This document shows, piece by piece, positions 3,791-4,458 of a stretch of DNA of 64,000 bases. Positions within the stretch are counted from its first letter, which is position 1. Each line of letters opens with the position of its first letter. The stretch is from a virus. Lineage: Duplodnaviria; Heunggongvirae; Uroviricota; Caudoviricetes. Below the pieces are notes generated by a model. The model was not told where the DNA came from. It saw only the letters and a list, made by a program, of their open reading frames with translations, and did not search any database. The position numbers and the translations under genes are program-made. Location of the stretch: the IMG/VR virus record IMGVR_UViG_637000265_000001; one strand, written 5' to 3'.

Positions 3791-4458
3791 AAACGATATA
3801 TACAGTAAGGAAAGCACTCTATCCAACAAACCACCCACAGTTAATCGGAATAAAAGCAGAGTGCTTATGAATGATCGCCTGCCCGAAGGTTAGTATTTCT
3901 GCACAGCAATTTTGCAAAAAAAGCGATCATTCATAACTTAAACGTCTTTCAGTCACTCCGGGATTTCCCATCATCGCAGACTGAAAGACTCTAACTGGAG
4001 CGGGCAGCGGGAATCGAGGTATCGAAGATAATCAGCCGCTAACCATTTGCTTCCTAAAGGATGATGAATCCTTGTGGTTACAGTTATGGTTACACATTAA
4101 TTTATCTCTGGTCAAGTCCTCTCGTGACTCTGGAACGAGTAACCGAAGTCCTAACTTTAAGACAGTGGCCCCAATCGTCCAGACTTGAAAGGGGCCAAGG
4201 GGGGAGAGGCACCGACCTTTGTCTATTAGATACCTACAGAGATTTTTGTGAGATTTTTTTAATACAAGGTCATAACCTACCGCCACTAGCCCCCACCGAC
4301 CGCAAAGTGAAGACCTGTAAGCACCAGAGCAATAGCTATTGCGGGCATACTGCTGATTGTTATTATCTATCACTCCCTGTAGAGCATCTGGCAGACCAAG
4401 TGGACACAGAGGACGAGCTCAAACAACTCCTGTAAGCTCATGGATGTACTCCTTATGT

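Follow-up and report, generated by a model that had tools for sequence, protein, structure and literature searches.

How do the lysis genes of a phage come to lie behind roughly 0.7 kb of non-coding DNA, with no gene for a Q antiterminator in the neighbourhood? The question is raised by IMGVR_UViG_637000265_000001, a Caudoviricetes record of which a stretch of 64,000 nucleotides (nt) was analysed (the whole stretch is called the window below), and it concerns positions 3791-4458, in front of the holin gene that heads a lysis cassette on the minus strand, where 'upstream of the holin' means towards higher window coordinates. A first-pass annotation, made from the sequence letters, had seen in this interval a leader with hairpins, to be read either as a degenerate pR'/qut/6S RNA region or as an uncharacterised structured RNA. 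The interval is a composite of three parts, which follow one another on the minus strand: the arm of an integrative island, the remnant of a tRNA gene and native phage sequence. We put at about 85% the probability that this composite results from insertion of the island and from an event involving the insertion sequence IS911, both superimposed on an otherwise normal lambdoid late leader whose native part is a conserved RNA module. Over its first 15.6 kb, the window shows 100% identity to record CP000266.1, which we take to be Shigella flexneri 5 strain 8401, and the source databases label the proteins of the locus S. flexneri.

An island arm joined to a phage tRNA

The composite nature of the interval is apparent from alignments that meet at a single point. 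Positions 3705-4017 are 99.7% identical to lambdoid prophages found in hundreds of genomes, the gene order of which is Q, tRNA Ile-Lys-Thr-Gly, about 290 nt and holin, and the match of these intact prophages to the window stops 22 nt inside the 3' end of tRNA-Gly. Positions 3995-4458 match the terminal part of a small island present in two E. coli genomes, and a three-way alignment of window, intact prophage and island shows a clean switch at 4017/4018. The full 3705-4458 segment is found, at ≥80% coverage, in none of 5426 complete E. coli genomes. What is left of the tRNA at the boundary is collinear with the intact tRNA of the empty site: 3996-4008 is specific to the phage, while 4009-4017 (TCGATTCCC in the RNA sense) is common to the phage tRNA and the island, which places the crossover in, or 5' of, the latter segment. 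Since a tRNA search of the whole window with ARAGORN returned no tRNA, the piece is recognisable by homology only. The attR of the Salmonella island reads ...GATACCTCGATTCCC-TTCGCCCGCTCCA (glyU) and that of the window ...GATACCTCGATTCCC-GCTGCCCGCTCCA (phage tRNA-Gly), their difference being confined to the 13 nt derived from the target, a pattern that strand exchange in or before the T-loop segment would predict. The exact 39-nt junction has 0 matches in IMG/VR and 0 in GTDB species representatives and, as traced via the exact 379-amino-acid (aa) protein encoded next to it, is restricted to one S. flexneri lineage.

Beyond the junction, the DNA up to 4458 is approximately 99% identical to the end of an island found at chromosomal glyU in Salmonella, and its first ~98 nt are common to glyU islands with other cargo (KilA-N, DUF4145). 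Downstream of the chromosomal tRNA-Gly(CCC) gene glyU, the genomes of E. coli 21AR0133 and LR-64-1 have, in this order, genes for a 544-aa integrase and a Rha-family regulator, a small open reading frame (ORF), a DUF6971 gene and the gene for a 373-aa protein; after these come ~410 nt of non-coding DNA and an incomplete copy of the tRNA 3' end. The island closest to that of the window has the same make-up, in the context dsbC, recJ, prfB, lysS and tRNA-Gly with std-type fimbrial genes beyond, and its proteins are labelled Salmonella and serovar Typhi by the sources; the gene order in islands of this kind is 539-aa tyrosine integrase, Rha, 64-aa ORF, DUF6971 and HK97-fold protein. A close parallel is Salmonella pathogenicity island 15 (SPI-15) of Salmonella enterica serovar Typhi, which is 6.5 kb long, adjoins the glyU tRNA gene and has five ORFs to which no function has been assigned (PMC7143636, PMC10373206). 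The likeness consists in ~99% DNA identity to a ~6-kb five-ORF island at tRNA-Gly(CCC), with terminal arm and att core alike, the equation with SPI-15 being based on published size, site and ORF count and not on locus tags. The window copy differs in that it lies in a phage-borne tRNA-Gly(UCC), within a prophage late leader, rather than at glyU, and in that it is cut by IS911 and has no integrase. The window thus holds a remnant, not a complete member, of the SPI-15-like family.

The arm has the layout that would be expected of an attachment site. Paired repeats of the motif TGTAACC (island sense) are present at 4072-4082 and 4084-4094, and such pairs, 12 nt apart, occur in both the integrase-proximal and the integrase-distal arms of all four islands examined, which is how arm-type integrase sites are laid out and makes these repeats putative sites of that type. 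In the same arm, the 22-nt unit TCAAGTCCTCTCGTGACTCTGG at 4112-4133 varies in copy number: the window has one, the Salmonella island two in tandem and the E. coli islands none, a polymorphism within what is presumed to be an attachment-site arm.

Two other genomes illustrate the phage site when empty and when fully occupied. In S. flexneri SFBU1023, a 99%-identical lysis cassette and spacer adjoin an intact tRNA-Gly, and the alignment to the window ends exactly at 4017. In E. coli EPSSH018 (NZ_CP125889.1, 15961-22400), a complete and diverged island of the same family occupies the phage tRNA-Gly site of a Rac-like lambdoid prophage, in the order tRNA Ile-Lys-Thr-Gly, 538-aa integrase, DUF4145 protein (matching the PD-T7-4 defence model), five more ORFs, attR, hairpins and holin. 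All but one of the annotated genes of this island run in the direction of the phage late operon, and the tRNA-Gly at its attL is a hybrid, with a phage 5' part and a glyU-type 3' end. As read from the sequence, this hybrid tRNA has mismatches in the T and acceptor stems. Together with the junction in the window, the EPSSH018 insertion implies that site-specific integration has taken place twice. No further island attR was found among the at least 120 IMG/VR loci scanned that carry the hairpin module described below, and insertion of islands into the phage tRNA appears to have occurred at least twice and to be rare.

IS911, the missing Q gene and the fate of the lysis genes

At its other end the island is interrupted by a copy of IS911, which joins a truncated rha to a truncated terminase gene on the opposite strand. 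The sequences flanking IS911 (CGC and GCC) show no 3-bp target duplication, which suggests that two IS911 copies recombined and that the element did not simply insert, and the rha-IS911-terminase arrangement is present in all S. flexneri genomes that have the exact 379-aa protein. When the Salmonella Rha protein was used in tblastn, residues 130-239 only were recovered (98%). Because IS911 truncates the island, its integrase is absent from the window, where no tyrosine integrase stands beside a rebuilt tRNA at an attL; Q, pR' and the other tRNAs are likewise missing because the IS911-associated rearrangement cut the island, and tblastn and tRNA searches found neither Q nor island integrase nor tRNA near the lysis cassette. 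In draft assemblies of S. flexneri, the island integrase is seen only as a 320-aa C-terminal fragment on contigs of ~1 kb, which end ~70 nt past the stop codon. These contigs are all that was recovered in S. flexneri of the missing half of the island, parts of which may persist elsewhere in the genome, between repeats.

The first-pass annotation was right that no Q gene is nearby: tblastn with four types of Q returned nothing in the window (no homologue within 50 kb of the leader), and the gene that flanks the leader is an island gene. An intact Q gene recognised by PF03589 (E 1.3e-57) is located at 59848-60471(+), 56 kb away, in a different prophage. That prophage has its own Rz gene at 61921-62358(+), with RusA, NinB and an antirepressor upstream of its Q and Rz, and has no match to the covariance model (R1) of the hairpin module. 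Whether such a Q could act in trans, as had been supposed, or read-through could replace it, depends on what is left in cis. A lambdoid Q must load onto RNA polymerase at the qut site in pR'. Neither strand of 3791-4458 was found to contain a sigma-70-like promoter, and with no promoter-like site in cis for a protein that loads only at qut, rescue of the lysis genes by the distant Q is unlikely. The remaining island genes are co-directional with the holin gene, so read-through from them would meet the terminator at 3774-3789. The part of the original proposal that stands is therefore that the cassette is cut off from Q and pR', and the lysis genes of this S. flexneri remnant are, judging from the sequence, very probably silent.

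These observations can be arranged in a simple history. The original order on the minus strand would have been Q, a candidate pR'/tR' pair, a tRNA cluster ending with tRNA-Gly(UCC), three hairpins (A, B and C), terminator and holin. An island of the SPI-15 type, normally found at the tRNA-Gly(CCC) gene glyU, would then have integrated site-specifically into the 3' end of the phage tRNA-Gly, which has the sequences GGGTTCGATTCCC and CCCGCTCCA in common with glyU, to produce an attR in which the right arm of the island adjoins the 22-nt 3' end displaced from the tRNA. Later, the IS911-associated rearrangement would have taken away, or moved elsewhere, all that lay upstream, namely Q, pR', the tRNA cluster including the rebuilt tRNA-Gly, the integrase and the first part of rha, leaving the lysis cassette without a late promoter in cis. 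That the junction arose by integrase-mediated insertion followed by IS911-associated loss can be proposed with high confidence, the integrase being the presumed catalyst.

Other origins have to be weighed against this one. Chance homologous or illegitimate recombination via the short sequence shared by the two tRNAs would lead to a similar join with no role for the integrase, and it would be in keeping with the identity of the glyU and phage tRNA-Gly 3' ends over 13 nt and 9 nt, with the IS-rich and rearranged genome of S. flexneri and with the missing integrase. This is nevertheless improbable, as the break falls exactly at the canonical att core of the family and the diverged EPSSH018 island independently occupies the same phage site with integrase, hybrid attL tRNA and attR all intact. 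Hardly tenable is the idea, with which the analysis of this locus began, that the interval is a decayed lambdoid pR'/qut/6S RNA/tR' region, the terminator being tR' and the hairpins remnants of the 6S leader. It draws on an intrinsic terminator ahead of the holin, on the place of the interval at the head of the lysis cassette and on the lack of Q, but there is neither a promoter with a qut site nor a Q gene immediately upstream. In intact relatives, the candidate pR'/tR' pair is located upstream of the tRNA cluster, more than 700 nt past the junction, and Q more than 1 kb past it, beyond four tRNAs. All that lies to the right of 4017 is island DNA, ~99% identical to the chromosomal glyU island of other genera, and phage HK639 has its own annotated tR' beside Q in addition to a separate terminator after the hairpins. 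As for the distal 441 nt (4018-4458), two ORFs are present, of 124 aa at 4061-4435(+) and 113 aa at 4032-4373(-), two indels relative to the E. coli variants amount to 24 nt, in frame, and a 7-bp GC hairpin at 4166-4197 is conserved, all of which could point to a small protein gene (the 124-aa ORF) or to a structured RNA of the island. Either is very unlikely. The 124-aa ORF is split into pieces of 58 and 34 aa in the E. coli islands and disrupted by the 22-nt duplication in the Salmonella island, and both ORFs, which have no Pfam match, were rejected as genes because non-triplet indels or this duplication break their frames in the closest relatives, in agreement with the original statement that the interval contains no convincing ORF. 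Folding of this part is not exceptional (z = -1.88, 5/100 shuffles), and past its first ~98 nt the sequence is not common to islands of the same integrase family. The inverted repeat GGCCCC/GGGGCC noted in the first pass is present here (4167-4172 and 4191-4196) and invariant in three aligned sequences, and so provides no evidence for or against a structure.

Much of this amounts to ordinary prophage decay, the missing Q and the long 'leader' being explained by ordinary mobile-DNA history. What is unusual is the choice of attachment site, since prophage tRNA genes can evidently serve as attachment sites for chromosomal islands, as they have done at least two times for islands of the SPI-15 type. 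One mobile element is nested in the late operon of another, and a 'pathogenicity island' of Salmonella Typhi is linked to prophages of Shigella and E. coli. If the reconstruction is correct, insertion of a SPI-15-type island in phage tRNA-Gly would place its cargo in the Q-dependent late transcript, co-oriented with it and induced together with the prophage. This would be satellite-like behaviour, with an HK97-fold shell-like protein as cargo in one variant and a PD-T7-4 defence gene in another.

A hairpin module ahead of the holin

The native phage part of the leader, 3705-3995, consists of three hairpins, a terminator and the holin 5' untranslated region (UTR), the last of which is 99.7% identical to that of many E. 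coli lambdoid prophages. The intrinsic terminator reported in the first pass was confirmed: a terminator-like hairpin GCCCGCTTTTGCGGGT followed by TTTTTCTTTTC is present at 3789-3774 on the minus strand, ~60 nt ahead of the holin start, and is the sole terminator in the leader interval. The inverted repeat GAATGATCGC/GCGATCATTC, also noted then, proved to be contained in a perfect 14-nt pair (3865-3878 and 3923-3936) that forms the arms of hairpin B, while hairpin C has arms at 3812-3820 and 3858-3866 (a perfect 9-nt pair). The proposal of an uncharacterised structured RNA thus has to be divided. It holds for the holin-proximal part, 291 nt of which have a minimum free energy of -97.1 kcal/mol (z = -5.10, 0/200 shuffles as good), and it fails for the foreign island arm, so that the interval cannot be treated as a single leader: only the 190-290 nt next to the holin are structured and covarying.

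Across homologous prophages, hairpins B and C both fold and covary. The consensus that RNAalifold predicts for 20 diverse sequences has two abutting stem-loops and 42 pairs, with compensatory changes in 10; 96.9% of cells are paired in this consensus structure, as against 35-50% when the partners were slid, and the covariation score is reached by 0/500 shuffles. Many of the changes are A-U to G-U and are compatible only with the late-sense strand, since the opposite strand would then have A-C mismatches. In hairpin C, the G/U-rich strand GGGUGGUUUGUUGG is nearly invariant and its partner drifts with G-U compensation. The loop of hairpin B is slightly variable among loci sampled via the hairpin-C motif, and in one phage (L181) hairpin B retains its inner stem but has another loop. 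Hairpin A has weaker support, with compensatory changes in 3 of its 15 pairs (15-sequence alignment), and is absent in some relatives, in which hairpin B directly follows the tRNA.

The module is widespread in enterobacterial phages. The covariance model has a single match in the window, 3809-3939(-) (130.9 bits, E 8.7e-31), and one copy per phage locus elsewhere, with 98 matches in IMG/VR and others in species-representative genomes of Escherichia, Shigella, Enterobacter, Citrobacter, Yokenella and Phytobacter. The spacer as such is found in 530/5426 complete E. coli genomes (~10%) and in four E. coli phages, and in HK639 a 77%-identical version separates Q/tR' from the lysis genes and is followed closely by an annotated terminator. 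A 19-nt loop motif identifies at least 120 contigs in IMG/VR, representing 77 distinct contexts, many of which have only 30-65% identity to the window over the spacer. In 7/8 species-representative loci, a gap of 0-57 nt separates the module from the last gene of a co-oriented phage tRNA cluster upstream of it, Gly-UCC in six loci and Glu-UUC in one. A terminator-like hairpin is located 9-38 nt past hairpin C in 29/43 distinct contexts and most of the others carry a weakened copy, the terminators being of at least four unrelated sequences. In most of 19 diverse loci, a holin-like membrane protein is encoded among the first ORFs downstream, with an endolysin-like ORF usually next in line, and at least five holin sequence types (judged by eye) are found downstream of the module. 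The recurrence of terminator and holin-like ORF indicates that the conserved unit comprises the hairpins and a terminator directly ahead of the lysis cassette. With compensatory pairing on one strand and a conserved genomic position, hairpins A-B-C and the terminator make up a credible new structured RNA family. A scan of 3000-7000 against Rfam 15 gave nothing at E ≤ 1; within 3690-4030 the top-scoring family (E 1.4, 13.3 bits against a threshold of 49.5 bits) is not meaningful, and no published description of the module was found in the literature searched.

Several known systems resemble the module in part. A lambda-type late leader shares with it the position between late regulator and lysis genes and a terminator to be overcome by Q-modified polymerase. 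It differs in that no promoter or qut was found here, in that the leader of this phage group is much longer, with a tRNA cluster and the hairpin module, and in that the terminator before the holin is a second one, distinct from that beside Q. In E. coli, 3'ETS-leuZ is reportedly a spacer RNA located 3' of the last tRNA of an operon. The module likewise comes directly after the last tRNA and ends at an intrinsic terminator, and tRNA processing could release an RNA from it, but it is ~4-5x longer, has three long hairpins, is phage-encoded and is not always preceded by a tRNA. The put RNAs of HK022 and HK639 are cis-acting antiterminators, each a pair of neighbouring stem-loops with RNA polymerase as their target. 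By description only, the likeness lies in two abutting stem-loops upstream of a terminator, and HK639 has a copy of the module; the module is, however, ~2x the size of put and located in the late leader, not just after pL or pR, where a constitutive antiterminator would express the lysis genes in lysogens. Finally, lambdoid prophages of pathogenic E. coli and Shigella have non-coding RNAs between pR' and the holin-lysozyme operon, namely the anti-small RNAs (anti-sRNAs) AsxR and AgvB and, beside the holin, PasA/PasC, which are prophage 'moron-site' sRNAs (PMC4104026, PMC8550237, bioRxiv 10.64898/2026.05.13.724894). AsxR and AgvB are Rfam families (bioRxiv 10.64898/2026.05.13.724894) and differ from the module in this respect, and PasA of enteropathogenic E. 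coli (EPEC) prophages is antisense to the late operon whereas the hairpin module is sense. The module shares with these RNAs the 'moron' site described by Tree et al. Identity with Pas sRNAs was considered and rejected: the PasA/PasB/PasC Northern probes (Table S6) were not seen in the sequence on inspection by eye, and comparison of the spacer with the E2348/69 PasA locus by blastn gave chance words only.

What the module does can be considered in the light of its position. Segment 3764-3995 could be the 3' end of a unit of tRNAs or morons expressed in the lysogen, a stable trailer with a terminator that insulates the lysis genes. The hairpins would protect the 3' end of the transcript or mark processing sites, and the terminator would halt lysogen transcription ahead of the holin, to be passed by Q-modified polymerase only. 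We give roughly even odds to the module being the structured 3' end of a lysogen transcript from between pR' and the lysis genes. The main alternative, which we regard as rather unlikely, is a gene for a trans-acting sRNA or sponge that would be cut from the 3' trailer of the phage tRNA transcript; the moron site is known to harbour prophage sRNAs, the module begins close behind the last tRNA and ends at an intrinsic terminator, and the near-invariant strand of hairpin C with its drifting partner is seed-like. This strand is, however, base-paired in the predicted fold, no match was found to Rfam sRNAs, the PasA locus or the PasA-C probes, and the presence of the module ahead of the lysis genes whatever the holin family points to a role in cis. 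It is unlikely that the hairpins act as DNA, without selection on an RNA, either as a linker for homologous exchange or as palindromes that bind protein. The module does occupy a mosaic boundary, with differing tRNA sets upstream and at least five holin types downstream, and conserved linker sequences have been proposed at such boundaries in lambdoid phages. A pure recombination linker would nevertheless conserve sequence and not pairing, while the stems here are kept by compensatory and strand-specific A-U to G-U changes and L181 retains the stem of hairpin B under a different loop. A bolder proposal, for which we claim no more than tentative plausibility, is that hairpins A-B-C and the terminator form a phage regulatory RNA, either acting in trans or setting lysis timing or strength in cis, and that islands target the phage tRNA-Gly for the sake of late expression.

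Some points weigh against the favoured account as a whole. The other half of the island and the segment with Q and the tRNAs lie outside the window, and the order of events and their mechanism, including catalysis by the integrase, are therefore reconstructions. Transcription of the module is presumed, and its insulating or stabilising role is deduced from its position. In some phages the module follows a coding region and not a tRNA, so that its interpretation as a tRNA trailer cannot be universal. The homologues were gathered with exact motifs of 15 to 19 nt, by which motif conservation is inflated, and they are related sequences (effective sequence number of the model 1.2), so that the covariation statistics are supportive rather than conclusive. 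The well-conserved RNA structure ahead of the lysis genes is nevertheless present in lambdoid phages from six or more enterobacterial genera, and it could bear on how lysis is silenced in lysogens that express tRNAs or morons between pR' and the holin.

Feature coordinates and neighbouring genes

Table 1. Features of the holin leader, the lysis cassette and the island remnant (window coordinates).
Feature	Position	Strand	Basis or remark
Rz	1792-2274	-	lysis cassette
Endolysin, signal-anchor-release (SAR) type	2256-2789	-	lysis cassette
195-aa ORF	2855-3442	-	between holin and endolysin
Class II (S21-like) holin gene	3489-3704	-	ORF; first gene of the orphaned lysis cassette
Holin 5' UTR with ribosome-binding site, GGAGGTGAGGCT ahead of ATG	3705-3763	-	read from the sequence
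Intrinsic terminator (6-bp GC stem, 4-nt loop, U-tract)	3764-3789	-	terminator prediction
Hairpins B and C, directly abutting stem-loops, module core	3809-3939	-	covariance model, RNAalifold
Hairpin A, optional first hairpin	3938-3994	-	arms 3944-3954/3979-3989 (perfect 11 nt) plus extension
Last 22 nt of prophage tRNA-Gly(UCC) = attR core	3996-4017	-	exact single copy in the window, alignments
Non-coding right-end arm of SPI-15-like integrative island	4018-4458	-	homology to glyU island end
Last island gene, 379 aa	4459-5598	-	GTG start at 5598
DUF6971 gene	5700-6155	-	Pfam DUF6971, E 1.8e-43
64-aa ORF	6238-6432	-	island gene
Rha-family regulator, C-terminal 110 codons	6439-6768	-	tblastn of Salmonella Rha protein
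IS911 copy	6771-8020	+	end matches IS911 in phage Sf6; terminal inverted repeats found

The island gene next to the arm encodes the 379-aa protein already mentioned, in which one extra C near the stop codon adds 6 residues and homologues of which occur across Enterobacterales. Sequence searches of Pfam, NCBIfam, PHROGs, PADLOC and PDB gave no match. An AlphaFold model (pLDDT, i.e. predicted local distance difference test score, 69.8) had 144 matches at E≤0.001 when compared with PDB by Foldseek, and every one of the 50 listed is an HK97-fold capsid or encapsulin shell protein, so the fold predicted from the model is HK97 capsid/encapsulin-like. The DUF6971 gene stands directly ahead of it, an order like that of cargo-then-shell encapsulin loci or of a lone satellite capsid-like gene.

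In the lysis cassette, PF04971 (Phage_holin_2_1) is recorded for the holin at an identical locus, and its relatives are annotated as class II holins. The 195-aa ORF has no Pfam or NCBIfam match, and in close cassettes, including those of other S. flexneri genomes, its place is taken by a DUF1327/YdfR gene. A copy of IS2 lies beyond the cassette.

Among the chromosomal islands, those of E. coli 21AR0133 (29970-47700) are in tandem at glyU, the attR of the SPI-15-like island being followed by a second island with a 650-aa integrase. In another of the loci compared (L008), a different phage-like element precedes the island, and no tRNA was detected upstream of the integrase. Elsewhere in the window, at 39148-43102(-), ORFs of 417, 307 and 120 aa adjoin a 386-aa tyrosine integrase (PF00589); by their size alone they resemble the gtr(type)-gtrB-gtrA serotype-conversion genes of S. 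flexneri phages, of which they may be counterparts, beside int as in a phage attP configuration.

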